From NCBI GenBank assembly GCA_027297745.1, contig JAPUHK010000024.1:994-64993 (forward strand): a stretch of DNA of 64,000 bases, read 5' to 3'. Position numbers and translations under genes: made by a program. This DNA is from Planctomycetota bacterium. Its GTDB lineage: Bacteria; Planctomycetota; PLA2. Shown in pieces: positions 23,816 through 64,000 of this stretch (positions are counted from its first letter, which is position 1; each line of letters starts with the position of its first letter). The notes beneath the pieces are model-generated. The model saw only the letters and a list, made by a program, of their open reading frames with translations. It was not told the origin of the DNA and made no database searches.

Positions 23816-24283
23816 ATGAAAAACTGGTTCGCACGCATCTGGCACGGTCTCAAGACGACGCTGATCGGGCTGAGCATCACGGTGCCCTACCTGTTCCGCA
23901 AGCCCTACACGCTGCAGTACCCCGAAGAGGTGCCCGACATCCCGGAGACGGAGCGCGGGCTGCACAACTTCGAGATCGACAAGTGCATCGCGTGCTACCA
24001 GTGCGCCAAGATCTGCCCCGTCGACTGCATCGCGATCGAGGACGAGATCAAGGGCAAGAACGCGGTACTGCTCAAGTTCGAGATCGACTACACGAAGTGC
24101 CTGTTCTGCGCGCTGTGCTGCGAGCCCTGCCCGACGGAGTGCATCCTCATGGGGCCCACGTTCGACCTCGTCGGCTACACGCGGGACGAGGTGATCATCG
24201 ACTACGCGGATCGCGAGAATCCGCGCACCTGGAGCGCGGGGGAGCAGATCCCCTATCCGATCGCGTCGTTCGCGAGGAAGTGA
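23816..24283 (+). CDS. nuoI: NADH-quinone oxidoreductase subunit I (2x[4Fe-4S]).
   Basis: CIACYQCAKICP and CLFCALCCEPCP ferredoxin motifs. Confidence 0.9.
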   Translation: MKNWFARIWHGLKTTLIGLSITVPYLFRKPYTLQYPEEVPDIPETERGLHNFEIDKCIACYQCAKICPVDCIAIEDEIKGKNAVLLKFEIDYTKCLFCALCCEPCPTECILMGPTFDLVGYTRDEVIIDYADRENPRTWSAGEQIPYPIASFARK

Positions 24284-37587: not shown

Positions 37588-37618
37588 GAAAACGCGCCGG
37601 AAGTCCGGCGCGTTCCTC
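37588..37618. terminator. Bidirectional rho-independent terminator.
   Basis: Hairpin GCGCCGGA-agt-TCCGGCGC. On the minus strand it is followed by TTTTCTTTTGTGG, downstream of the EEP gene. A T-rich run also follows on the plus strand. Confidence 0.6.
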
Positions 37619-37636: not shown

Positions 37637-38665
37637 CTAGTCGTTGTCGGTCTCGGGCACGCGCAGCGTGATCCATACCGGGCGATGGTCGCTGACCGCG
37701 CGGGCCGCCGCCGCATCGTTGCCGCCGTAGATCGTCTCGTCGAACTTGCGCGTTCCGGACGTTCCGGTCCACTCCGTCGTGTGCTTCGGATGGATGAAGA
37801 TCTGATCGAAGTTGGTGCGTCCCCGCACGCCGGTGAACGTCAGGTCGTCGACGGTCGGCCTCAGGCCGGAGTTTTGGAGCAGCGCCTCGAAGGCCGGGTC
37901 GCCGCTGTCCAACTTGAAGTCGCCCATCAGGATCACGTCGCGGTCACCGGGCGTCGCCGCCTGGATACGGTCCCAGGCCGCGGCCAGCGCGCTCACCTCG
38001 GCCTTGCAGTGCGCCAGCGTGTGGCCGGGGTAGATGTGCACGGCCGCCAGCGTGAAGTCGAAGCCGCCGCCGGTCGTGAAGCCGGCGAAGACTACGTCGC
38101 GCGTCAGCTCGTTGTCCGGGTCGGCATCGACCTTCAGCCCGCCGGCCATGCGGATCGCGGAGGAATCCCACAGGAGCCCGATGCGCTGCCGGTGGCCACT
38201 GGCCTCTCCCAGCTCCGGGCTGGCCGCATGTTTCCAGGAGGAGCCGAACTCGCTCGCCAGGCGCTCCAGCGACTGCTCGCTGCGGACACCCGCCAGAACC
38301 ACGATCTGCATGCCCTCGACGGTCCGGGCGATGGCGCTGCGCGCTTCCGCGCTGCTCATGCGCTGCACGTTCCACCACATGACGCTCACGGTCGGGCCCG
38401 GAGTGGGCTGCGAGGGCAAGACCACCTTGGGGGTGGGCTGCACTTTGGCCACCGGCTCCACCCCGGCCACGGGCTCTTCCCGAGGGGGCGGGGTCATGAC
38501 CGTGGCCGGCGTCGGCTCTTCCGTGGGGACGTCCCTGATCATGGGGACAGCGCCGGGCTCGCCCGCCACGGCGGTGCCGAGGGTCGGCTCACGGTAGTCG
38601 GGGCCGGTCCCCTGGCAGGCCGCCAAAGCAGCGGCCAAGGCGGCGGCGACGAAGACTCTGGGCAT
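37637..38665 (-). CDS. Exo/endonuclease/phosphatase (EEP) family lipoprotein.
   Basis: Lipobox LAACQG. A Pro-rich linker. An EEP core (VMWWNVQ ... ILMGDFKLD ... SDHRPVWITL). Confidence 0.75.
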   Translation of the reverse strand: MPRVFVAAALAAALAACQGTGPDYREPTLGTAVAGEPGAVPMIRDVPTEEPTPATVMTPPPREEPVAGVEPVAKVQPTPKVVLPSQPTPGPTVSVMWWNVQRMSSAEARSAIARTVEGMQIVVLAGVRSEQSLERLASEFGSSWKHAASPELGEASGHRQRIGLLWDSSAIRMAGGLKVDADPDNELTRDVVFAGFTTGGGFDFTLAAVHIYPGHTLAHCKAEVSALAAAWDRIQAATPGDRDVILMGDFKLDSGDPAFEALLQNSGLRPTVDDLTFTGVRGRTNFDQIFIHPKHTTEWTGTSGTRKFDETIYGGNDAAAARAVSDHRPVWITLRVPETDND

Positions 38666-39142
38666 GTTCTCCTCCTAGCTTGGGCTAGTGTCGCCACGGC
38701 CGCTGGTGGCGTCCAGACCTTATTCGGCCCCTCGAGGGCGATTCGGGCCGCTTGTCCCAGAGCGACGCAACCGCCTGACAGATGGGGCCCCCTTTGTCGA
38801 TTTCGGTCGACGACGGGACCCGTCCCTGGCCTGAAAGCCGGCCTTCCAGAAGTTCGCTCTGTGGGTGTGCGGCGCCCCGCTGCGGCGGGTCCGGGCACGC
38901 CCGTTGCGGTCGGGACGCGGCAGTAATCGACGATTCCCGAGCCGGCGCTCCGCACACACCCGCAGTAGCCGCGGCTAGTGCATTCGGACGCCGGCCGGGG
39001 CGGGGCTTCGACACCTGGACGGCGGTGCGAGGGGCGCGGGCCGGGGCCCGACTTGGGGCCTTCATGCCCTAAATGCGCCAAGCGCTCGCTGACACCGCGG
39101 CCGAGATGCCTGAGAATGCATGACCAGAGAGAGGAGATCTTC

Positions 39143-51329: not shown

Positions 51330-51401
51330 TACGCTGCCTAATCTTCGTCGCCCCCGGCCGGGGCTTGAGGCGGCGCCCAAAGGCCCCATTCTGGAGGGCT
51401 T

Positions 51402-52990: not shown

Positions 52991-53496
52991 ATGCGTAAGG
53001 GAACGATCGCCCTGTGTCTACTCGTCTGTGCTGCAGGCACCTACGCGGCAGTCGAGTGGACCGTCGGCAACGGAGACGCAGGCGGGGCCAATCTGCATCA
53101 GATGGGCAAGTCCGGCATCAAGGCTCGCATCCGTATCGTGGATCACGGTGACCCGGCCGCGGGTCTCGAGGTGACGGGCACGGCCACGGGCCTCGACCCG
53201 GGCCAAGCCTATTTCTCGCTGTTTTACGACAGCAGGGCCAAGCCCTCCGGTCCTTCGGCCTGCGCGCCCAACGTGCCGGGCGCCCTGACCCCGCCTCAGA
53301 TGTTCATCTCCTTCTGGCAGGTGGACGGCAACGGCAACGGCACGCTGCACGTGACCAAGACCGGCCCCTCCTACGCCGCTCTGGGCGCCCTGGGGGGGCC
53401 ATGTCGATCCGTCTGGGCGCCACCGGCGCGCTGCAGGCCTGCGGTAAGGTCACTCCCGCCGACGAGTCCGCGCGCACCTGCCGCCTCCAGCGTTGA
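52991..53496 (+). CDS. Secreted Cu/Zn-SOD-fold (CHRD-like) protein interrupted by a frameshift at a G7 homopolymer.
   Basis: Signal peptide MRKGTIALCLLVCAAGTYAA. LEVTGTATGLDPGQAYFSLFYD resembles the SodC beta-barrel, but the His ligands are replaced. After the G-run at 53392-53398 the shifted frame reads MSIRLGATGALQACGKV, matching the SodC C-terminal (SRLACGVIG) motif, and stops at 53496. Confidence 0.45.
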
Positions 53497-53566
53497 CCCA
53501 CGATCCCAACGAAAAGCGGGGCGCCCGTTTCAGGGCGCCCCGCGCTGTTGGCTGTGAGTCCGTGGA

Positions 53567-56395
53567 CTAGGGTCCGCTGACGTAGTTGCCGGCGTTGCCC
53601 CCGATGTTGCCGTTGGCGTCCAGCCAGGAGTCCAGGTGGATTCCGATGGCCGGGTCGGGGTTGGTCAGCCTGTCGATCAGCGTGCCCGTCAGCGGTCCCG
53701 CCATGGTCGGGTTGGGCGTGCCCGTGCGCAAGCTCGGGCCCGTCCCCGGCATGAGCGGGTGGTTGCTGGAGCTCGTCGGAGTTCCGTCCGCGAGCACGAT
53801 GCTGTCCAGGTTGTAAGCGATGCGGGTCATGAACGTGGCCGGGTCGAAGGCCGTCGCCGGCGCGACCGTCACGTTCTGGATGCCCGGATCGGCGAAGATG
53901 CCGTACCGGTTCGGGTTCTGGTCCAGCGGGTTGATAGCGCCGCCGTTCCCGTCGAACAGGAACAGCCCCGTACCCAGGCCGGCCACCATGTGCACCCAGA
54001 AGGGTGAGTTCATCTGGTTGCCGGAGTTCTGGCCGAAGTGCTGCCTCAGCTCCGTGAAGTCCAGTTGATCGTAGCTTCCGCTCGCCATGGCGGAACGGAA
54101 GGCCACGTACTCGGTCCCGTACTGCTGCATACCCGCCTCGGTGATGTGGCACGCGACGCAGTAGCGCGGGCCCTCCATGGTGGAGGTGACGCGGCCGCGG
54201 ATCGAGTGGGCCATCATCGCGTTGTGACCGAGCGAGGGCGTTTGGTTGGGGTCGCTCCCCTGCGCCTTGCGGTCGGAGAACGTGAAGATGCTGGACAGCT
54301 GGTTGTTGCGGTCCTCCCACTGGAAGAACATCTTCGTGTTCGAGCTGACCTGCGTGATCTCGTTGTGCGGGCTGATGCCCAGCGCCATGAACACGGGCGA
54401 CTGGTACACGAACTCGGCCTCGTCCTCCTCGAAGACGATGCGCTCGCCCGTGATGTTGCTGAAGTCATTCGAGTACTCGCCCTTCAGGTGACAGCCCATG
54501 CACGTGTTCGTCCACGAAGCGTGGCAGGACGCGCAGTCCAGGTCGTCCGTGTGGCTGAAGTTGCTCGGGACCGCGTTGTTCGCCTGGATCGGACCTATGC
54601 CGGTCGTGCCCAGGCCGTCGTCACGGCCCATCGCATAGGAGGCCTTGTCGCTGTACAGGGGCGCCCCGCTGAACGGGTGCGTCCGGCCCGTGTTCACGGT
54701 GACGTCCAGCGTCTGCGGGACGAAGTGACGCGCGCCCGTGAGACGGCTGTACAGGTAGAAGTGGCCGTCGCTCTCCAGCACGACGTGCGCCAGGGTGTTC
54801 CCCTCGCCGTCCACCGCCAGCTCCTGGGTGGTGTTGTCGTAGGCCGTGCCTTGAGCCGTCTGGGCATAGGCCGCGACGCCGCCGTGGCAGCTCTCGCAAC
54901 GGATCCCCACGGCGTGCTCCATGCGGCTCACGATCTTGCCGCCGCTCGGGGAGGTCACGTCGCCGCCGTGCAGGTCGAAGCTGCCGTGGCAGTCGATGCA
55001 GCCCATGCCGGCCTCGTAGTGCACGTCGGGCGGGGTGTCGTCGCGGCCGTCGTCGTCGTAGTCCTCCTCGAGGAGGTACTGGTTGCGGTTGCGCCCGTTG
55101 AACTCGCGGTTCCCCAACCGGATCAGGACGCCGTTCTGGTCGTAGATCGGCAGGTTGGGGTCGAACAGGCGCGTGTCGCCGGAGGTCGTCCGGTAACTTC
55201 CCGGCTGCGACGGGTACTGGAAGCCGCGCCGCACGTCCTGGTTCTGGTCGAGGCGGATGCCCCAGTACTGCATGACCGTGCGGTTCGAGCCCTGGTGGCA
55301 GCCGGCGCAGGCGTAGTCGTCGATGCCCTGGACGAACTCGCCGCTGGACAACGTCTTGGCCACGGTGCGGATCAGGTGGCGGGCGACGTGCGGCAGCTCG
55401 GGCTCGTCGATGTCGTCCGGATCGTACGGCTCCATGCGGTTGAGGTTCGGATCGTTGCTGGTGGAGCGCCCGCTCAGGCTGTGGCGCATGTGGCACGCCG
55501 AGCAACCCGAGCCGCGGTAGTCGCCGTAGCGGTTGTTCGCGCCGGCGCTGCCGAGGTGGCAGTCTCCGCAGGTGTAGGCGATCTGCTCGTGATAGAGCTT
55601 CGCCAGCGGGGAGTCCGTGATCGCCTGGCCCGTCAGCGGATCGATGTCGTCATCGAGCTCGGCGGCGTCGAAATCCGGGTTGTTGCGGATGTCGTTCGGG
55701 CCGTTGTTGAAGCGCCGGCTGTAGACCGGGAACTCCATCAGGTTTTGCACCGAACCGAAGGTCGTCGGGTCGAAGCTCTGGTCCGTGACGGCGCGAATGC
55801 CCAGGTCGGCGGCCGTGTCCTCGTAGCCCGTGTACCCCATCTGGTTGTCCACGCCGGCCGCGAACATCGCGCCGGAGAAGATGCCCATCTCGGTGGCGAT
55901 CGGGCTCTGGGACACGATCTGCGCGTGGTTCGCGTGGCACTGGCCGCAGCTGCGGTTCTGCGTGACCACGCGGATGTCGGCCGGGCTGACGAACTGCAGC
56001 CAGTCCAGCGCGCTGTAGGTCTGCCCGTTCGCGGCCGTGTAGTCCGGGAACTTGTCCGGACCGGCCAGGGTCAGCCGGTTGAAGTAGGCGTGGTCGTTGT
56101 TGATCCAGTTCTGCCGGTCGCCGATCTCGGGCGGCGCCGGGACGTGGCTCGAGGCCCTGTCCGTCCCGTTCGGGTTTCCGCCGTGGCAGGTGGTGCACAG
56201 CAGGTTGCTGGCGCCCGTGAAGGGGTGTGGGTTCTCGAGGCCCGGGCCCCCGTAGTTGTTGTCCACGGAGCCGTTGTGGCAGGTCATGCACGACTGGGCC
56301 GACGCTGTGATCGCGCGGCCGCTGGAGTCGACGCAGCCCGTCACGACGAACGCCAGTAGGAAGATGACTGAGAGGAGACCTCTGTGATGAGTCAT
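53567..56395 (-). CDS. Undecaheme c-type cytochrome lipoprotein (outer-membrane / extracellular multiheme cytochrome candidate).
   Basis: Lipobox LAFVVTGC. Eleven CxxCH motifs (CMTCH, CTTCH, CGQCH, CGDCH, CSACH, CAGCH, CIDCH, CESCH, CASCH, CMGCH, CVACH) in about 940 aa. The ATG at 56395 has an alternative GTG at 56407. Confidence 0.85.
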   Translation of the reverse strand: MTHHRGLLSVIFLLAFVVTGCVDSSGRAITASAQSCMTCHNGSVDNNYGGPGLENPHPFTGASNLLCTTCHGGNPNGTDRASSHVPAPPEIGDRQNWINNDHAYFNRLTLAGPDKFPDYTAANGQTYSALDWLQFVSPADIRVVTQNRSCGQCHANHAQIVSQSPIATEMGIFSGAMFAAGVDNQMGYTGYEDTAADLGIRAVTDQSFDPTTFGSVQNLMEFPVYSRRFNNGPNDIRNNPDFDAAELDDDIDPLTGQAITDSPLAKLYHEQIAYTCGDCHLGSAGANNRYGDYRGSGCSACHMRHSLSGRSTSNDPNLNRMEPYDPDDIDEPELPHVARHLIRTVAKTLSSGEFVQGIDDYACAGCHQGSNRTVMQYWGIRLDQNQDVRRGFQYPSQPGSYRTTSGDTRLFDPNLPIYDQNGVLIRLGNREFNGRNRNQYLLEEDYDDDGRDDTPPDVHYEAGMGCIDCHGSFDLHGGDVTSPSGGKIVSRMEHAVGIRCESCHGGVAAYAQTAQGTAYDNTTQELAVDGEGNTLAHVVLESDGHFYLYSRLTGARHFVPQTLDVTVNTGRTHPFSGAPLYSDKASYAMGRDDGLGTTGIGPIQANNAVPSNFSHTDDLDCASCHASWTNTCMGCHLKGEYSNDFSNITGERIVFEEDEAEFVYQSPVFMALGISPHNEITQVSSNTKMFFQWEDRNNQLSSIFTFSDRKAQGSDPNQTPSLGHNAMMAHSIRGRVTSTMEGPRYCVACHITEAGMQQYGTEYVAFRSAMASGSYDQLDFTELRQHFGQNSGNQMNSPFWVHMVAGLGTGLFLFDGNGGAINPLDQNPNRYGIFADPGIQNVTVAPATAFDPATFMTRIAYNLDSIVLADGTPTSSSNHPLMPGTGPSLRTGTPNPTMAGPLTGTLIDRLTNPDPAIGIHLDSWLDANGNIGGNAGNYVSGP

Positions 56396-56630
56396 TTCTG
56401 ATCTCACTTTGCCCGACCCCTCCGGCGGCGACCGCCGGAGTCCGAGCGAGAGGGCGTGAGAGCCGGCCCCACGAGGGAGAGACCAACACGCGGTAGTCCG
56501 ATGCTAGGAACGGGTATCACTTGGAGGGGGGCCTGAGAGACGCAACTTGAGACTTCAGCCGGAGCGTCTCGTTGTGAGGCGGCTCGATCGGAAACGCCGG
56601 CGGTCTGCCCCACAAACCGTGCGGGGCCGC

Positions 56631-57278
56631 TCAATTGACGGCCGGCACCCATGCCGTGGGCACGTGGCACTCGTGGCAGTTGTCGACGAAGCCCAGCGGG
56701 ATGTGGGGGGGATTGGTGGTGTTGTTCCGGTCGTCCACGTGGCACGTGACGCACTCGGTGTCCACGGGGATGAAGTTGCCGACCCGCGCGCCCGGGTGGC
56801 AGCGGTAGCAGGCCACCAACGTGTGGGCGCCGAGCAGCGGGAAGCGCGTCCGGTCGTGGAGCGCGATCTGGCCCACGGGGCGCCAGGTCTGCTCGGTGTG
56901 GCAGCGGGTGCAGTCCTTGTCCAGGTCGCCGTAGTGGTAGTCCTCGTGGCAGCCCGTGCAGCCCTGCGAGTGGAAGATCGCCACAGGCCCGCGGTCGTTG
57001 TGGCAACGCAGACATTGCGCCTGCTCATGAGCCCCGTTGAGAGCGAAGCCGGTGTTGGCCAGGTGGTTGAACTTGAAGTCGCTCTTGAGCTTGTTCCAGT
57101 CACCGCCCACGTGGCACAGCTGACAGTCGGCCGGGAACGAGTCGTGCGGCAGGACCGGTCCGAAACCCGCCCACCAACGGTGCTGCTTGCCGGTCAGCGG
57201 GCGCGCGGCGGCGCAGGCCAACAGGATCGCGCTCAGGAGCGCGATCGCGATCGGGCGTCTACGGAATCGGAATCGCAT
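56631..57278 (-). CDS. Periplasmic heptaheme c-type cytochrome.
   Basis: Signal peptide MRFRFRRRPIAIALLSAILLACAAA. Seven CxxCH motifs (CQLCH, CLRCH, CTGCH, CTRCH, CYRCH, CVTCH, CHECH) in about 215 aa. A GAGAG ribosome-binding site lies 12 nt after the OMP stop codon. Confidence 0.85.
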   Translation of the reverse strand: MRFRFRRRPIAIALLSAILLACAAARPLTGKQHRWWAGFGPVLPHDSFPADCQLCHVGGDWNKLKSDFKFNHLANTGFALNGAHEQAQCLRCHNDRGPVAIFHSQGCTGCHEDYHYGDLDKDCTRCHTEQTWRPVGQIALHDRTRFPLLGAHTLVACYRCHPGARVGNFIPVDTECVTCHVDDRNNTTNPPHIPLGFVDNCHECHVPTAWVPAVN

Positions 57279-57290
57279 GGGTATCAACTC

Positions 57291-59081
57291 TCAAAAGCCC
57301 TTCTGCCAGGTGAACCCAGCGGACCACGAGATCTCCTTGTCGTAGGCGACGACCTCCCCGAACACGTAGACGTCCCAGTTTCCGACGCGATAGACGCTCA
57401 AGCTGCCGCGCAGACGTTGCTGCACCAGGTCGTCCCGGTTCGCGTTCAGGCCGTGGATGTGGTGGAAGGCAAGCTCGTACATCAGGTCCCACCTGCCCTT
57501 GGCCGTCGTGCGGCCGTAGAGGAGACGCACGCCCGCCACGCTCTCGTACTGGCCGATGTTGCCGTAGCCGACGAGGTCCAGGTGCGCCTGGCGCCGCAGC
57601 GTCTGTTCGACGCCGATGTCGAACGCGCCGCCGCTGCCGTCCTCGTCGACCCAGCCGCTGACGTGCCCGTGCAGGCGCCTGTCGGCGCCCAGCATCTTCC
57701 AGAGGTTCAGCGCCAGCCGGTCGAACTCGTTGTTCGCCAGGTCGGCGGCGAAGACGATGGGACGGTATTCGCCCTCCCGCAAGAGCTCTGCGAACGCCCA
57801 GTGCTGATAGAGGAACTGGATGCCGCCCCGGGCGAAGGTGCGGTTCAGGGAGGCGATGGCCTGCGTGATCTCTATGCCTGAGCCCTTGATCGGGTCGCTG
57901 GCGGAGTAGAAGTCGACCCAGATCGTGGCGTGGAAGGCCCAGCCGTCCACCGGCAGAACGTGCATGCGGGCCACCAGGAGGTCGCGGTCCGGGTTGCCGT
58001 TGTTCCAGGTCTTCTGGAAGCCGCCGGCGATCAGGAAACGCTCGTTCGGGTCCTGCACCCACTCGTACCAGCCCGCCAGCTGGAAGTCCTCGAAGGTGTC
58101 GAAGTCGTCGTTCAGCTCCGGCATGTAGCCCATGCTCACGCCGTAGCGGTGCCCGTTGTCGCCCCTATGCGCCCACTGCAGGCCGTCCAGCACGCCGAAC
58201 TCGGGCATGCCGTGCTGCAGGAAGCGGCCGACCTCCCAGCGGTTGCTGTTGAAGCGATTTCCGCCGCGGAAATAGGAGAGGCGGCGCAGCAGGAAGTCCC
58301 CCGTGAGGTCGCTGTTGTACTTGTAGTTCGCCAGGTAGGCCGCCTCCGCGTTGAGGCGGAAGCCGCCGCCCTTGCCGAAGGGATTCGAGTAGGTCAGGTC
58401 CGTGCCGACTCGCAAGTAGGAGCTGGTGAAGTCGCTGTCGGGGTTGTCCGTCACCGCGGCGCTCACATAGGTGAAGCCGGCGAGCCCCTTCCGGCGGTTC
58501 TTGGGGCGCACGGCTCCGGTCTCGGCCAGCAGCGACTTGCTCGTGGACCACTCCTCGTCCTTGTTCTTCCAGGGCGGGTGTTCCGGAGTCTCGCCCTCGG
58601 TGCCCGCGGCAGCAGCGCCTCCGGCTGCCGCTGCACCTGCGGCGACTCCGGCGCCGTCTTTGTCCTTGTCTTCCGGCTCGCCTTCGCCTTCCGGCTTGGT
58701 GCCTTCCCCTTCAGGCTGTCCGCCTTCGGGTTCCGGTTGCAGTTCGGGCTCCGGCTCAGGATCGGGTTGCGTGAAGCGCGAAGCCGGGATCAGCACTTCG
58801 CCGCGCGTGCCCGCTTCGGGAACGAACTTGGCGTCGCGCATCTCGACCACCGCGCTGCGCGCGCGGACCGAGAGCACGGTTCCGGAATAGGTGCCGCCCT
58901 GGCGCGGGAAGAAGGACACGACGTCGCCGATGGCGAGGCCGTCCCGCTTGCCGCGGTCGATGGTGACCGAGGCTCCGGGTCCCGCGGAGCTCACGCGCAG
59001 GGACACACGTTCCAGCTCTTCCTGCGCCCATGCGGACACGCAGGTCCACAGGACCATGGAGAGCAGAATTACAAGCCTCAC
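57291..59081 (-). CDS. Outer-membrane beta-barrel protein (porin-like), candidate sheath of a porin-cytochrome conduit.
   Basis: A GTG start overlaps the upstream stop codon (GTGA) and is preceded by GGAAGGAAGA. Signal peptide MRLVILLSMVLWTCVSAWA. An acidic PEPE/Gly-Ala low-complexity linker. Alternating amphipathic beta-strands. C-terminal aromatic residues FTWQKGF. Confidence 0.75.
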   Translation of the reverse strand: MRLVILLSMVLWTCVSAWAQEELERVSLRVSSAGPGASVTIDRGKRDGLAIGDVVSFFPRQGGTYSGTVLSVRARSAVVEMRDAKFVPEAGTRGEVLIPASRFTQPDPEPEPELQPEPEGGQPEGEGTKPEGEGEPEDKDKDGAGVAAGAAAAGGAAAAGTEGETPEHPPWKNKDEEWSTSKSLLAETGAVRPKNRRKGLAGFTYVSAAVTDNPDSDFTSSYLRVGTDLTYSNPFGKGGGFRLNAEAAYLANYKYNSDLTGDFLLRRLSYFRGGNRFNSNRWEVGRFLQHGMPEFGVLDGLQWAHRGDNGHRYGVSMGYMPELNDDFDTFEDFQLAGWYEWVQDPNERFLIAGGFQKTWNNGNPDRDLLVARMHVLPVDGWAFHATIWVDFYSASDPIKGSGIEITQAIASLNRTFARGGIQFLYQHWAFAELLREGEYRPIVFAADLANNEFDRLALNLWKMLGADRRLHGHVSGWVDEDGSGGAFDIGVEQTLRRQAHLDLVGYGNIGQYESVAGVRLLYGRTTAKGRWDLMYELAFHHIHGLNANRDDLVQQRLRGSLSVYRVGNWDVYVFGEVVAYDKEISWSAGFTWQKGF

Positions 59082-61156
59082 CGCTTTTCTTCCTTCGCGC
59101 CCCGGCGGAACGGGTTCTCGTCCTCGCCGTGGCAATCGGCGCACCTGCCCCCCATCGGGCGATAGCGGATGAAGTCTTTACCGTTCTCGCGAACTGGTAA
59201 ATGGCAGGCGGAGCAGGCCAGGGGGGTGTGGGCCTCCCCGAGCTGGAAGCTCGAGTCCAGGTCGTGGCGGAAGCTCAGGTCCGTGAAGGCCGCAGCGGCA
59301 GGCCTGTGGCAGCTCCGGCAGTCGGTCAGCCCCTTCACCTCGAACTGCCCGGCATGGGAATCCTGGTGGCAATCCGAGCAGTGGCCGCCCTTGGCGCGGG
59401 CCCAGGTGCGCCCGGCCTCGTCCGGCTCCCGCAGGGGGGTGTGGCAGTCGGCGCAGTCGACTTTCTTGTGCTGGCCGACCAGGGCGAAGCCGGTCCAGCG
59501 CTTGTGGTCGAAGCCGTTCGGGAAGGTCCGGAACGAGCTCTCGCCGTGGCAGCGCTCGCAGCCGGTCTTGCCCTTGAAGGTGCGCGGCATGCCGGGCTTG
59601 TCGAAGTCGTTCTTGTGCGGATCGATGTGGCACGTGTCGCACCCCTCGTACACGCCGAAGCGATCCGAGACGCGGCCGAACGTGCGGCCGAAGCGGTCGG
59701 GTTCCGGGGTGCGCGGGTGGCAGGCCTCGCACTCCTCCTGCGCGTGGGCCGCGACTAGCGGGAACCCCGTCCACGGGCCGTGGTCGAAGGCCTCGGGCGG
59801 GATGTCCCGGAAGTCCGTGGCCAGGTGGCAGTCGGCGCAGCGGCCGTACGTGCTCGCCGATGTCTCCGGCGCGAACTGCTCGAAGAACCCCTCGTGCGGG
59901 TCCGGATGGCATCCGGCGCACTTGACGGGAGTCCCGTGGAACACGCGCGGGCTGCCCTCGATGGGCGCCGCCTCGTGGCACGCGTTGCAGTCGGTCTCGA
60001 TATGGCTGCCGATCAAAGGCAGGGACGTCTCCGCGTGCATCTCGACGCTGAAGATGTGCGGCTCGAAGTAGAGCGTCCCGTGGCAGGCGACGCACGCGCC
60101 GCTCTTGAACGAACCCTCGCCGAACTGGCCGCCGTGGGGATCCTCGTGGCACGCGGCGCAGTCGTCGGCCGCGCGGGCCGGGTAGCGGGCCTTGAAGTCC
60201 TCGTGGTTGAGATCGTGGCAGTCCGCGCAGCCCACTTCGTGATGCGGATCGGTGAGCGAGAACCCGGAGCTTTCGTGCTGCTCCACGGTCATCTCCCCGA
60301 GCTGCCTGTCGTTCCAGGTCGTGTGCTCCGCGCGATGGCACACGTCACAGGCGGCGCCGGTGGGGCGGGAGACCTGCAACGCGACGCCGTCGACGAAACC
60401 CTCGGCGTGCGAGTTCGCGTGGCAGTCCACGCACATGCGCGCGGCCGGGGCGCGATTCTCGCCTAGCGCCTCGAGCGTGTAGGGCTCGTTCGCGTGGCAG
60501 GAGCGGCACTCCATGTTGCTGTGGCCGCCGATCAGCTGCAGGTAGTCCTCGTGGCCGCGCGACTCCAGCTCCGCCCAGGCGCGTTGCCCGTGGCACTGGA
60601 CGCAGCTCAGCGCCGCGTAGCGGCCCTCGTGCACATCCCCGTGGCACGTCGTGCACTCCTGGTCGAGCCCGATGTAGCGCGTCGCGCCCTCCGGCAGGAT
60701 CTCGATGTTCACCTGCAGGTGGCACTCGTTGCAGGCCAGCTCGATGTGCCGGCCGTCCATGGGGAAGCGGATCATGTTGTGGTCGAACTCCGCCGGGTCG
60801 GGCACGCCCGCGGCCGCGAAGCTCTGCCGGTTGACGATGGCGAAGCCCGCGCCGTGGTGCTCGCTGTGGCACAACGCGCACAGCATGGCCTTGTTCCCAA
60901 TCACGCCGTGGAGTCCGTTTCCGGCGGCGATCTGCGCGTCGATCGTCTTGTGGCACTCGAGACACGCATCCGACATGCTCAGGAACAATCCGCCGTGGCA
61001 CGCGGAGCAGCTCTCGCCGCGGTTCAGGTCGCCCACGCGCGCGTGGACGGCCGTGACCTCTCCCGGTGACTTGCGCCCGAGGTGGCCGATCACGACGTAG
61101 AGCACCGCCGCAGCCGAGGCCAGGCCGATCCAGAGGCCGGGACGTCCCAGCTTCAA
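59078..61156 (-). CDS. Membrane-anchored 23-heme c-type cytochrome.
   Basis: N-terminal signal-anchor (LWIGLASAAAVLYVVIGHL). 23 CxxCH motifs counted by eye in 692 aa, about one per 30 residues. A TTG start overlaps the upstream stop codon. Confidence 0.85.
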   Translation of the reverse strand: MKLGRPGLWIGLASAAAVLYVVIGHLGRKSPGEVTAVHARVGDLNRGESCSACHGGLFLSMSDACLECHKTIDAQIAAGNGLHGVIGNKAMLCALCHSEHHGAGFAIVNRQSFAAAGVPDPAEFDHNMIRFPMDGRHIELACNECHLQVNIEILPEGATRYIGLDQECTTCHGDVHEGRYAALSCVQCHGQRAWAELESRGHEDYLQLIGGHSNMECRSCHANEPYTLEALGENRAPAARMCVDCHANSHAEGFVDGVALQVSRPTGAACDVCHRAEHTTWNDRQLGEMTVEQHESSGFSLTDPHHEVGCADCHDLNHEDFKARYPARAADDCAACHEDPHGGQFGEGSFKSGACVACHGTLYFEPHIFSVEMHAETSLPLIGSHIETDCNACHEAAPIEGSPRVFHGTPVKCAGCHPDPHEGFFEQFAPETSASTYGRCADCHLATDFRDIPPEAFDHGPWTGFPLVAAHAQEECEACHPRTPEPDRFGRTFGRVSDRFGVYEGCDTCHIDPHKNDFDKPGMPRTFKGKTGCERCHGESSFRTFPNGFDHKRWTGFALVGQHKKVDCADCHTPLREPDEAGRTWARAKGGHCSDCHQDSHAGQFEVKGLTDCRSCHRPAAAAFTDLSFRHDLDSSFQLGEAHTPLACSACHLPVRENGKDFIRYRPMGGRCADCHGEDENPFRRGAKEEKR

Positions 61157-63378
61157 CTTTTGCCCCCGAAGAAGAAGGGGTAGTACGCGAGCGCGTAGAC
61201 GATGTGGATTACCACCAGCAGCACCATCAGCGCCGCCATCCAGCGGTGCAACCAGCGCCAGGTGCCGAGCACCGCGCGCAGGTCCTCATAGTGCGCCGCC
61301 ATGAGCGCCGTGCGGTGTGCCTTGCGCGCGAGCTGCATCGTTTCCTTGATCTGCTCCTCGTCGATGCCCTCTTCACGCCCTTCGTCCTCCAGGCGTGTGA
61401 GCAAGCGCTTCAAGCCGCCCCGGCCGGTCAGCATGGACAGCACGCGCCCAAGGAACCCCGAGCCCCATTGCTTCTTCTCGATCAGCTCATCCACCGCGCT
61501 GCGCGCCCGTTCGCGGTACTCCCGTTGGCCCTGGTCCCACTCCTCGGACATGCGGCCGAGGCGGGCCTTGACCTCCTGCAGCTCCAGCTCGCGTCCGTTC
61601 GCGGCGCGCGGCACGCAGGCGTAGAAGTAGCGTCCGATGGCGCCGGTGACCAACAGCACCGCCAGCGCCCAAAAGGCGTGCCCCGCGACGGTGTTGCCGG
61701 GCGCCATGGCGCCGTGCAGCGTCGCCAGCAAGAGCGCCAGGATGCCCGTGGCGACGTGGCTCGTCATCCAGATCTGCAGGGAGCCGACGTTGAGCCGGAA
61801 GCGCGGCGAACGCCGCACCAGATAAAGGAGGTTCACGAGGATCAGCGCGGTCGCGCCGATGCCCAGCCACAGGCCGAGGCCGAGGCCCGGGCGCAGCAGC
61901 GCATGCTTCGGGTGCGCGGCGCGCGCGGAGGCCGGCAGGCCGTAGTAGTCCGCGTGCACCATGACCCAGACCAACGCGGCCAGCGAGAGTGTGAAGCCGA
62001 TGCCGAGCGCGTGGACCAGGCCCGTGCCCTGCTCGCCGAGCTGGGGCGCCGCCTTGCGCAGCGACGGGTCGAAGGACACGCCCGAGCGTTCGAGCAGCTC
62101 CAGCGGCGCGCTGCCGCCCGCCATCACGAACACCTCGTCGTTCGGCAACGTGCGCGTCGCCGTGCCGTAGCCGCTCTGCACCGTGAGCTCGACCGAGTCC
62201 GGACGGATCGCCCGCACTTCGCTGTTGAACAGGACCTCGAGCTTGCCCTCGCGCAGGCATTCGTCCAGGCGCTCCTGGTTCTTGGGTCGAATGCGGAAGA
62301 AGCTCTCCTTGCGGTACGAGAGCGTCACCTGGTTCCCCGGTTGCTCCGCGAGACCCATGGCCGCCTCGACCGCGCTGTCGCCGCCGCCGACGACCAACGT
62401 GCGCCGGTGCTGGTACGAGTGGGCGTCCAGCAGGCTGTAGGCCACCTTGGACAGGTCTTCGCCTTCCACGCCGAGCTTGCGCGGCGAGCCGCGGCGGCCC
62501 ACCGCCAGACAGACGTTGCGCGCCGTGTAACTGCCGGTCTTGGTGCGCACGACGTAATTGCCGTCGTCGTCCCGGCTAAGACCCACGAACGTCTCCTGGG
62601 AGCGGATCGGCAGCTGCTGCTCCTCCGCGATGTGCGCCCACAGCTCGACCAGCTCTTCCTTCGTGTAACTGGACTTCAGGCGGCCGTAGAGCGGCAGGTC
62701 GACCGGCTGGCTCATGATCAGCTTGCGCCGCGGGTACTTCGCGACCGTGCCGCCGGGCCCGCTCTCCTGGTCCAGCGTCACGAACTTCAGGCCGTGGCGC
62801 TTGGCCTCGAGCGAACACGCCAGGCCGGCGGGGCCGGCGCCGACCACGCACAGGTCCAGCGTGCCGTTGGGGTTGGGCTCGTGCTCCAGGCGCCGCGCGA
62901 CTTCGCCCGCTACGGCCGTTCCGTGGTCGACGGCGGTCTTGATCAGCGAGTGCGCGGTCACCTCACCCGCGAGGAACAGCCCGGGCGAGCCCACGGCCTC
63001 GAGCTGTTCGGTCAGGACCGGGATGTCCCGGCGCTCGGCGATGTCGCTCAGCGTGACCTTGATCGCGCCGACGGGGCACTCGCGCTCACACAGGGCATGG
63101 CCGACGCAGCGCGCGCCGTGCACGACCATGGCCTGGCCGTGCACGAGCTTCAGCACCTGGTCCTCGGGACAGACGTCGACGCACGTGCCGCAGCCCAGGC
63201 AGCGGGACAGATCGACGACGGGTTGGGCGAGCTGGGCCTTGTCACTCCCCTGACGGACCGCCTGCTCACGGTCGCCCAGCGCGCGGCGCATGCGCCGGAG
63301 CTCCAGGCGCCGCGCGATCGCCACCATGAGGGATAGGCCTAGGGCGACTACGACTCCAATAAGGAGGGGCCAACTCAT
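61153..63378 (-). CDS. Membrane-bound fusion oxidoreductase: N-terminal TM helix + 2x[4Fe-4S] ferredoxin + FAD/NAD(P)-binding (TrxB/GltD-like) domain + C-terminal polytopic domain with His-bearing TM helices (putative cytochrome b).
   Basis: CLGCGTCVDVCP and CVGHALCERECP. Rossmann motifs VVGAGPAGLA and VVGGGDSAVEAA. Five or six C-terminal TM helices with conserved His (MVHADYYG, TSHVATGILALLLATLHG, GHAFWALAVLL, VVIHIVYAL). GGAG ribosome-binding site before the ATG at 63378. Confidence 0.75.
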   Translation of the reverse strand: MSWPLLIGVVVALGLSLMVAIARRLELRRMRRALGDREQAVRQGSDKAQLAQPVVDLSRCLGCGTCVDVCPEDQVLKLVHGQAMVVHGARCVGHALCERECPVGAIKVTLSDIAERRDIPVLTEQLEAVGSPGLFLAGEVTAHSLIKTAVDHGTAVAGEVARRLEHEPNPNGTLDLCVVGAGPAGLACSLEAKRHGLKFVTLDQESGPGGTVAKYPRRKLIMSQPVDLPLYGRLKSSYTKEELVELWAHIAEEQQLPIRSQETFVGLSRDDDGNYVVRTKTGSYTARNVCLAVGRRGSPRKLGVEGEDLSKVAYSLLDAHSYQHRRTLVVGGGDSAVEAAMGLAEQPGNQVTLSYRKESFFRIRPKNQERLDECLREGKLEVLFNSEVRAIRPDSVELTVQSGYGTATRTLPNDEVFVMAGGSAPLELLERSGVSFDPSLRKAAPQLGEQGTGLVHALGIGFTLSLAALVWVMVHADYYGLPASARAAHPKHALLRPGLGLGLWLGIGATALILVNLLYLVRRSPRFRLNVGSLQIWMTSHVATGILALLLATLHGAMAPGNTVAGHAFWALAVLLVTGAIGRYFYACVPRAANGRELELQEVKARLGRMSEEWDQGQREYRERARSAVDELIEKKQWGSGFLGRVLSMLTGRGGLKRLLTRLEDEGREEGIDEEQIKETMQLARKAHRTALMAAHYEDLRAVLGTWRWLHRWMAALMVLLVVIHIVYALAYYPFFFGGKS

Positions 63379-63435
63379 GCCTTCACTCCGGCCTCAGTGC
63401 TATGCCCTCCTGCCCGACCTCCCAGACCCGCCCGT

Positions 63436-63978
63436 CTACTTGCCGCCGGCGCTTCGCGCCCTGAGCTCCCGGTCCCGGGAGCTGCCGCTGACGTTCATGG
63501 ACGTGGCCTTGCGTCGCGTCTCGCCCTGGCTGAAGGCCGGGGCAGGCGGGCCCTCGACGGGCTGGGCGGCGCTCACGGGCAGGGCGGCCGACTCGACATA
63601 CGCGCGAGCAGCCTTCAGGCAGGCGTCGAACTCGCCGTCGAGATCAGAGACCCGCTTGGCCAGCGCGCGCGCTTCGCCCTGGATCTCGGACACGGCCACG
63701 GGGTTGAGGTCGTTGCCCAGGAAGAGCGCGTGGTCGCGCAGGCTGTTGTTGACCGCATCATAGGACGCCAGGGCGGGCTCCGCGGCCGCGACGATGGCGT
63801 GGTAACGCTCGCGAGTCTCCACCAAGCGGTTGCGGCTGCGCTGGCGCAGCTCCACGCTGCTGATGTCCTTGAGGTCATCGGCCCACTGATCGAAGACCGG
63901 ATCGCTCGAGTCCTTCATGTTCTCGATGCTGTCCCGAAGCTTTTCGGCCTGCTCCTCGGAGTTCTCGATGGCCGTCAT
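63436..63978 (-). CDS. Hypothetical protein (coiled-coil rich), possibly N-terminally truncated by the window edge.
   Basis: 180-aa track ORF ending 57 nt upstream of the oxidoreductase gene. No family recognised. Confidence 0.4.
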   Translation of the reverse strand: MTAIENSEEQAEKLRDSIENMKDSSDPVFDQWADDLKDISSVELRQRSRNRLVETRERYHAIVAAAEPALASYDAVNNSLRDHALFLGNDLNPVAVSEIQGEARALAKRVSDLDGEFDACLKAARAYVESAALPVSAAQPVEGPPAPAFSQGETRRKATSMNVSGSSRDRELRARSAGGK

Positions 63979-64000
63979 GAACTCCCCGTAGGCCGTAACC

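Follow-up and report, generated by a model that had tools for sequence, protein, structure and literature searches.

Stable hairpins such as those in the 5' UTR of ompA, in the intercistronic regions of papBA and puf, and in the 5' stabilisers that adjoin a Shine-Dalgarno sequence stabilise mRNA or tune its translation. For the cytochrome gene omcB, both operon and monocistronic transcripts have reportedly been found. The porin-cytochrome (Pcc) clusters, for instance ombB-omaB-omcB of Geobacter (PMC4282303), offer the closest gene context for the locus described here, a five-gene operon on the minus strand of the 64-kb stretch of planctomycete DNA analysed in this work (hereafter the window), of which the last gene encodes an undecaheme lipoprotein cytochrome (table 1). 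Unlike the Geobacter clusters, however, the window encodes proteins that are not detectably members of the Geobacter families, with a porin that is putative, and it adds upstream a 23-haem cytochrome and a membrane oxidoreductase carrying FAD and 4Fe-4S domains. A literature search found no paper on this cytochrome gene cluster in Planctomycetota.

A further described system is relevant to the relatives of this locus, namely the promoters of the sigma-28 class (FliA / SigD / WhiG). Their consensus has been given as TAAAGWWY-N11/12-RYCGAWRN in Chlamydia (PMC8762339) and as TAAAGTTT-N11-GCCGATAA elsewhere (PMC7286023), while the sigma-28 promoter of Pseudomonas aeruginosa fliC reads TCTAAAG / GCCGATAA (PMC12784957).

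The Operon and the Start of Its Last Gene

The first gene of the operon encodes an unusual fusion protein, in which an N-terminal transmembrane segment is combined with a 2x[4Fe-4S] ferredoxin, an FAD/NAD(P) pyridine-nucleotide-disulfide oxidoreductase and a C-terminal membrane domain that is multi-span and rich in His; it may serve the conduit as its module for electron input at the inner membrane. The 692-aa cytochrome that follows has one hydrophobic segment, at its N-terminus, and a weak match to the DmsE family of decaheme proteins that lies below the cut-off. NCBIfam models returned only weak matches of the ExtM / DmsE type for the operon proteins, all under the cut-off; the putative porin has no Pfam match, and a lookup of the exact heptaheme protein returned no record. 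The signal-peptide region of the heptaheme gene contains a second perfect 9-bp inverted repeat, GATCGCGCT-cagg-AGCGCGATC (57225-57246).

Table 1. Features of the cytochrome operon and of the spacer before its last gene, in the order of transcription (window coordinates)
Feature	Position	Strand	Description
741-aa protein	61153-63378	-	First gene of the operon; 2x[4Fe-4S] ferredoxin + FAD/NAD(P) oxidoreductase + C-terminal membrane domain
692-aa cytochrome	59078-61156	-	23 CXXCH motifs
Putative porin, ~596-617 aa	57291-59081	-	Ends ...WQKGF, typical of outer-membrane barrels
Heptaheme c-type cytochrome, 218 aa	56631-57287	-	7 CXXCH; Pfam matches to Cytochrome_C7 / MtrC domains
Non-coding spacer	56396-56630	-	Heptaheme stop at 56631; 235 nt to ATG, 223 nt to GTG
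Weak hairpin just 3' of the heptaheme stop	56607-56627	-	GCCCCGCA-cgguu-UGUGGGGC, then ...CGUUUCC
Isolated -10-like CCGATCG	56585-56591	-	PWM -10 block 7.5 bits; no -35-like partner at 16-18 nt
GTCTCAAGTT, -35-like half of the clade motif GCTCAAG(A/T)	56544-56553	-	PWM -35 block 10.2 bits
Perfect 9-bp stem with 3-nt loop	56440-56420	-	CUCCGGCGG-ucg-CCGCCGGAG; arms 56440-56432 and 56428-56420, loop UCG 56431-56429
Shine-Dalgarno-like GGAGGGG	56417-56423	-	First four bases (GGAG) within the 3' arm of the hairpin
Candidate undecaheme starts	GTG 56407-56405, ATG 56395-56393	-	From the sequence
Undecaheme lipoprotein cytochrome, 942/946 aa	53567-56395	-	11 CXXCH; lipobox VVTGC
Canonical intrinsic terminator at the operon end	53543-53516	-	11-bp GC stem, then UUUUCGUU; z = -4.96

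The genes of the operon are tightly packed up to the heptaheme gene: those for the 741-aa and 692-aa proteins overlap by TTGA, those for the 692-aa and 617-aa proteins by GTGA, and the gap between the 617-aa and 218-aa genes is 3 nt (TTG start) or 12 nt (ATG start). An earlier note on this DNA, which had put these junctions at 0 to 12 nt, was right about their tightness, the exact picture being two overlaps and one short gap; its figure of 235 nt for the last junction holds if translation begins at the ATG and falls to the shorter value of table 1 if it begins at the GTG. The evidence on the two codons is divided. In relatives the protein starts 19-20 residues ahead of the lipobox Cys, which favours the ATG of the window, a codon that has no good Shine-Dalgarno box; of the two, only the GTG is preceded, at 11 nt, by a GGAGG box. 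Upstream of both, the frame of the undecaheme gene stays open to 56503 without offering another start codon.

Searches for other genes or known RNA elements in the spacer were negative. The short open reading frames within it (26-32 aa), as well as a 203-aa ORF running through it in an alternative frame, were rejected as genes because the corresponding spacers of relatives vary from 34 to 473 nt and are not alignable, and because their GC3 does not show the coding signature of the real genes. Rfam 15 gave no match at gathering score in the whole window; a permissive scan of 55900-57200 yielded chance-level matches only, all outside the spacer, and no tRNA or tmRNA was found. Folded as a whole, the spacer has no unusual structure (z = -1.2), and the weak hairpin just after the heptaheme stop is not significant in its context (z = -1.57), with a run of only 3 U after the stem.

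The Spacer Is Retained in Relatives

The undecaheme protein has more than 1500 homologues (1515), nearly all from metagenome-assembled genomes of Planctomycetota. A genome scan provided a set of 80 loci for comparison, including those of Saltatorellus ferox and Rohdeia mirabilis. The closest relatives are L081 and L082, the undecaheme proteins of which have merely 69% and 63% identity, respectively, to that of the window; consequently, there is no near relative with which a covariation analysis of the window hairpin could be made. For the closest homologue (P0001, 904 aa), the public gene call appears to start too far downstream (L081:2868-2977): an in-frame ATG at ~2868 would give a proper lipoprotein signal peptide (MSQTGRGLSVTLLLALVVGC) and reduce its spacer from 262 nt to ~153 nt.

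In 47 loci the undecaheme gene directly follows the heptaheme gene, and all 47 have a spacer between the two, with a median of ~125 nt, whereas the median at the preceding junction, between porin and heptaheme genes, is ~1 nt (55 loci). On this evidence the arrangement of the cluster, compact apart from a gap ahead of its final gene, is conserved in Planctomycetota of the Saltatorellus clade, and no accident of the window's genome. The conservation does not extend to the letters of the spacer. Relatives' spacers show no overall alignment, and comparison of the window spacer with those of its closest relatives (by alignment) and of all loci (by blastn-short) gave no meaningful similarity; without alignable sequence, homology between the hairpin of the window and those of its relatives cannot be shown.

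A Bipartite Motif Upstream of the Undecaheme Gene in Relatives

What many of the relatives' spacers do share is a bipartite motif, GCTCAAG(A/T)-N16-18-(Y)CGA(T/A)(A/G). In its strict form it occurs on the coding strand within 400 nt upstream of the undecaheme gene in 31 of the 80 loci (examples are L037:3984-4020, L056:5854-5890, L047:5878-5914 and L065:5856-5892), as against 15 matches elsewhere in 1.97 Mb (both strands), corresponding to a 128-fold enrichment at the junction. Scored with a position weight matrix (PWM) at a threshold of at least 17 bits, the motif is found at the junction of 33 loci versus 5 matches elsewhere. Most of the remaining spacers carry degenerate forms (CTAAAG, CTAAG, CTTAAG, CTTCAG) with CGAWR at the same spacing; the k-mers shared among motif-less spacers are only GC-rich noise and the -10-like TCGAAGGA. 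The -35-like block is TCAAG, in a few cases TAAAG or CTAAG, followed after 16-18 nt (mode 18) by a -10-like block in which CGA is invariant and succeeded by T/A and then G/A; from the -10-like end to the start codon downstream, the distance is 47-150 nt, in rare cases more. Since loci whose undecaheme gene does not directly follow a heptaheme gene (L019, L005, L043 and L060) have the motif as well, it belongs to the undecaheme gene. No consensus RNA structure could be predicted for the motif region (zero pairs), nor was there a third conserved block of the kind found with ECF factors (AAC upstream of TCAAG), and for these reasons we read the motif as acting at the level of DNA. Taken together, these features are those of an alternative-sigma-factor promoter.

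Among described promoters, the motif appears closest to the sigma-28 class, as a resemblance and not as a demonstrated membership. Both are bipartite, and the downstream block, YCGA(T/A)(A/G), matches RYCGAWRN; upstream, CTCAAG(A/T) stands against (C)TAAAG(W), with the canonical sigma-28-like CTAAAG present in one relative (L078) and CTAAG in two others (L007 and L046). In most copies of the clade, however, the second letter of the -35 pentamer is C where sigma-28 promoters have A, and the distance from pentamer to CGA is mostly 1-2 bp longer than the 16-17 nt of the sigma-28 class. The function of the gene also differs, for the targets of sigma-28 are flagellar or sporulation genes and that of the clade motif is a multiheme cytochrome; no flagellar genes were found in the window or in the relatives' loci examined. 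The window departs further from the sigma-28 class in that its spacer has no -10 block.

A few matches away from the junction deserve mention. One of the five strong ones, GAGCTCAAG-N17-CCGATAAAT (L054:12609-12643, minus strand), is intergenic and lies upstream of a gene for a small RNA-binding protein of RRM type. Within the window, a strict match on the minus strand, CCTCAAG-N16-CGAAGA (51335-51368), falls in the 73-nt gap between a beta-lactamase-like gene and one for a CAP/SCP-domain lipoprotein, with only ~12 nt between its end and the ATG of MSMLKRTPF...; either a genuine promoter whose leader is very short or chance could account for it, ~1 match being expected in 128 kb. Another match, at 24072 on the plus strand, is a chance occurrence and lies inside the coding sequence of a NuoI-like 2x[4Fe-4S] protein (23817-24283, plus strand), a member of an apparent NADH:quinone oxidoreductase (nuo) operon at ~20.7-30.2 kb. 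Altogether, the number of matches elsewhere in the window fits the expectation by chance.

The Hairpin Next to the Ribosome-Binding Site

The inverted repeat that had originally been described as a perfect 7-bp stem at 56422-56440 is indeed present and perfect, and it extends to 9 bp. On folding it gives a stable stem-loop (-18.8 kcal/mol, z = -3.7 versus shuffles), set within a spacer that is unremarkable as a whole. Such a stem appears in 0.92% of 5000 dinucleotide shuffles of the spacer, and the 64 kb of the window contain only 6 sites where 9 bp or more pair perfectly around a loop of 3-8 nt, frequencies which place the hairpin beyond chance. Allowing up to 3 mismatches, its pattern has no second copy in the window; as a single site, it was discarded as a candidate REP-like repeat.

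The 3' end of the hairpin is 12 nt ahead of the GTG, and its 3' arm runs into the Shine-Dalgarno-like box. In a 66-nt fold, an outer helix GCUCGG/UCGGGC encloses the remainder of the GGAGGGG box, and the probability that the Shine-Dalgarno sequence is unpaired is 0.25 if the start is the GTG and 0.32 if it is the ATG. Such occlusion presupposes the GTG start and may be peculiar to the window's genome.

The corresponding position in relatives is also structured, to a modest degree. The last 64 nt of their leaders have a mean z of -0.86 ± 0.20 against shuffles (n = 44), with 23% below -2, versus -0.29 ± 0.16 (n = 48), with 6% below -2, for control leaders of the same loci; the excess is ~0.57 z units (p ~0.03). 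The strongest hairpins tend to end 11-23 nt ahead of the start codon, just upstream of a purine-rich Shine-Dalgarno box, and pairing of the Shine-Dalgarno window itself does not exceed that in control genes (unpaired probability 0.44 versus 0.38). These hairpins are unrelated in sequence and several of them need G-U pairs, which indicates a function at the level of RNA rather than DNA. The recurring feature is thus a stem-loop immediately 5' of an accessible ribosome-binding site, a layout that speaks for a 5' stabiliser or an insulator more than for a translational lock. The stem of the window goes beyond this pattern by also intruding into the Shine-Dalgarno-like box.

With the hairpins of ompA, papBA and puf and with other 5' stabilisers, the hairpin of the window has in common that it is stable, GC-rich and devoid of a U tract, and that it lies immediately upstream of, or overlaps, the ribosome-binding site of a distal cistron. 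It has no sequence homology to any characterised element, Rfam having given no match.

Possible Functions of the Spacer

What, then, is the role of this spacer? Our preferred explanation, put forward tentatively, is that it constitutes the 5' regulatory or leader region of the undecaheme gene, in which the stem-loop adjacent to the ribosome-binding site tunes mRNA stability or translation. The gap would be kept throughout the clade before the gene for the outer-surface cytochrome, the other genes of the operon being translationally coupled; most relatives would have in it the alternative-sigma-type promoter motif GCTCAAG-N16-18-CGAWR and then a leader tending to hold a stem-loop upstream of the ribosome-binding site. 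Given that the promoter motif is not intact in the window's genome, its undecaheme gene would probably depend for the most part on read-through transcription coming from the cytochrome and porin genes that precede it. There the hairpin would act on the RNA, since it adjoins and partly occludes the Shine-Dalgarno box, and its likely roles would be to set the translation initiation of the last cistron and/or to shield the downstream mRNA from 5'-dependent decay after processing. The location of the hairpin would also be compatible with the RNA-processing site, or control of stoichiometry, that an earlier reading of this DNA had suggested.

Two of the alternatives concern the hairpin itself. The earlier note had proposed an internal attenuator, that is, a leaky terminator that would lower transcription of the surface cytochrome relative to the periplasmic genes. 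In its perfect GC-rich stem, short loop and intergenic location, the hairpin does resemble Rho-independent terminators and attenuators; it is stable, and the cell may require unequal amounts of the proteins encoded on either side of it. However, no U tract follows it (the next letters are GGGUCGGGCAAAGUG / GGGUCGGGCAAAGUGAGAUCAGAAAUG), there is neither an upstream leader peptide nor an evident alternative antiterminator fold, and the stem is embedded in the ribosome-binding region of the next gene, the Shine-Dalgarno box of which it overlaps just before the GTG. The terminator scan did not flag it, the only real terminator being that at the operon end, where the same operon closes with a canonical U tract. 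Moreover, hairpins with a U tract behind them (at least 5 U in 9 nt) are absent from all 47 homologous spacers, so that termination inside the spacer is not a feature of the family. The spacer hairpin is not a transcription terminator, and the attenuator proposal, having failed on all these points, is very improbable. (Elsewhere in the window, a perfect 10-bp GC-rich inverted repeat, AACGCGCCGG-aagt-CCGGCGCGTT at 37591-37614, lies just past the 3' end of the minus-strand gene 37637-38674 and is probably its terminator hairpin.) We also consider it improbable, if less so, that the perfect 21-bp palindrome CTCCGGCGG-TCG-CCGCCGGAG is a DNA operator by which a dimeric regulator blocks or activates the undecaheme gene. 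As DNA the palindrome is flawless, free of G-U pairs and without a second copy in the window, and it sits just upstream of the start codon; yet the sequence divergence and the G-U pairs of the equivalent hairpins in relatives speak for RNA, and no regulator gene is evident beside the operon.

The other alternatives concern the spacer as a whole. An internal promoter, which the earlier note had also suggested, finds support in the gene family, on account of the relatives' motif, but not in the window. In the latter, the -35-like half-site scores within the range of relatives' -35 blocks, but no CGAWR follows its TCAAG (56550-56546) at 16-18 nt, where the best -10 block scores -4.0 bits, and the lone TCAAG would be expected ~0.1 times by chance in 235 nt. 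The isolated -10-like CCGATCG (56591-56585) lies upstream of TCAAG, not downstream; the best bipartite score of the window is 6.3 bits, compared with 17-28 bits in relatives. An intact motif is equally absent from the two closest relatives, L081 and L082, and promoter prediction did not come to the rescue of the suggestion, for sites resembling those of sigma-70 (TTGACA-N16-18-TATAAT-like) number zero in 53000-64000 on either strand. It is nonetheless conceivable, if unlikely, that a functional promoter for an alternative sigma factor persists in the window spacer even though the motif is degenerate, in which case the undecaheme gene would have a separate transcript with the hairpin as a 5'-proximal stabiliser; besides the half-site, the family-wide motif at the same junction and a spacer length similar to that of motif-bearing relatives are in favour of this possibility. 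Slightly less likely still is that the spacer is a decaying, non-functional remnant of an ancestral regulatory region and the hairpin a chance GC-rich palindrome. This would be in keeping with the unexceptional fold of the whole spacer, the broken motif and the lack of sequence conservation with relatives, but it has to contend with the rarity of the stem among shuffled spacers, the excess of structure at the same position in relatives and the retention of a spacer in every one of them. A broader scenario, which we regard as rather doubtful, is that in the Saltatorellus clade the surface cytochrome of the porin-cytochrome conduit has its own promoter, recognised by a sigma-28-family factor (FliA/WhiG-like) or by another, dedicated alternative sigma, and that the lineage of the window has lost this promoter, keeping only post-transcriptional control based on the hairpin.

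Implications for Planctomycete Electron Conduits

Taken by itself, the feature of the window is an ordinary leader or intercistronic hairpin, and the clade-wide motif resembling sigma-28 promoters is more interesting. This promoter-like, clade-specific motif is also the more useful by-product of the analysis, as it can be searched for genome-wide to define a regulon. If the reading of the spacer as a regulatory leader is right, expression of the surface cytochrome would be uncoupled from that of the translationally coupled periplasmic and porin genes in a widespread and unstudied electron-conduit operon of planctomycetes, which would be a plausible way of setting the stoichiometry of the subunits. 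If, instead, the scenario of an own promoter in the clade is true, display of this cytochrome of extracellular electron transfer would be tied to a programme of the cell cycle, of motility or of development, independently of the periplasmic parts of the conduit.
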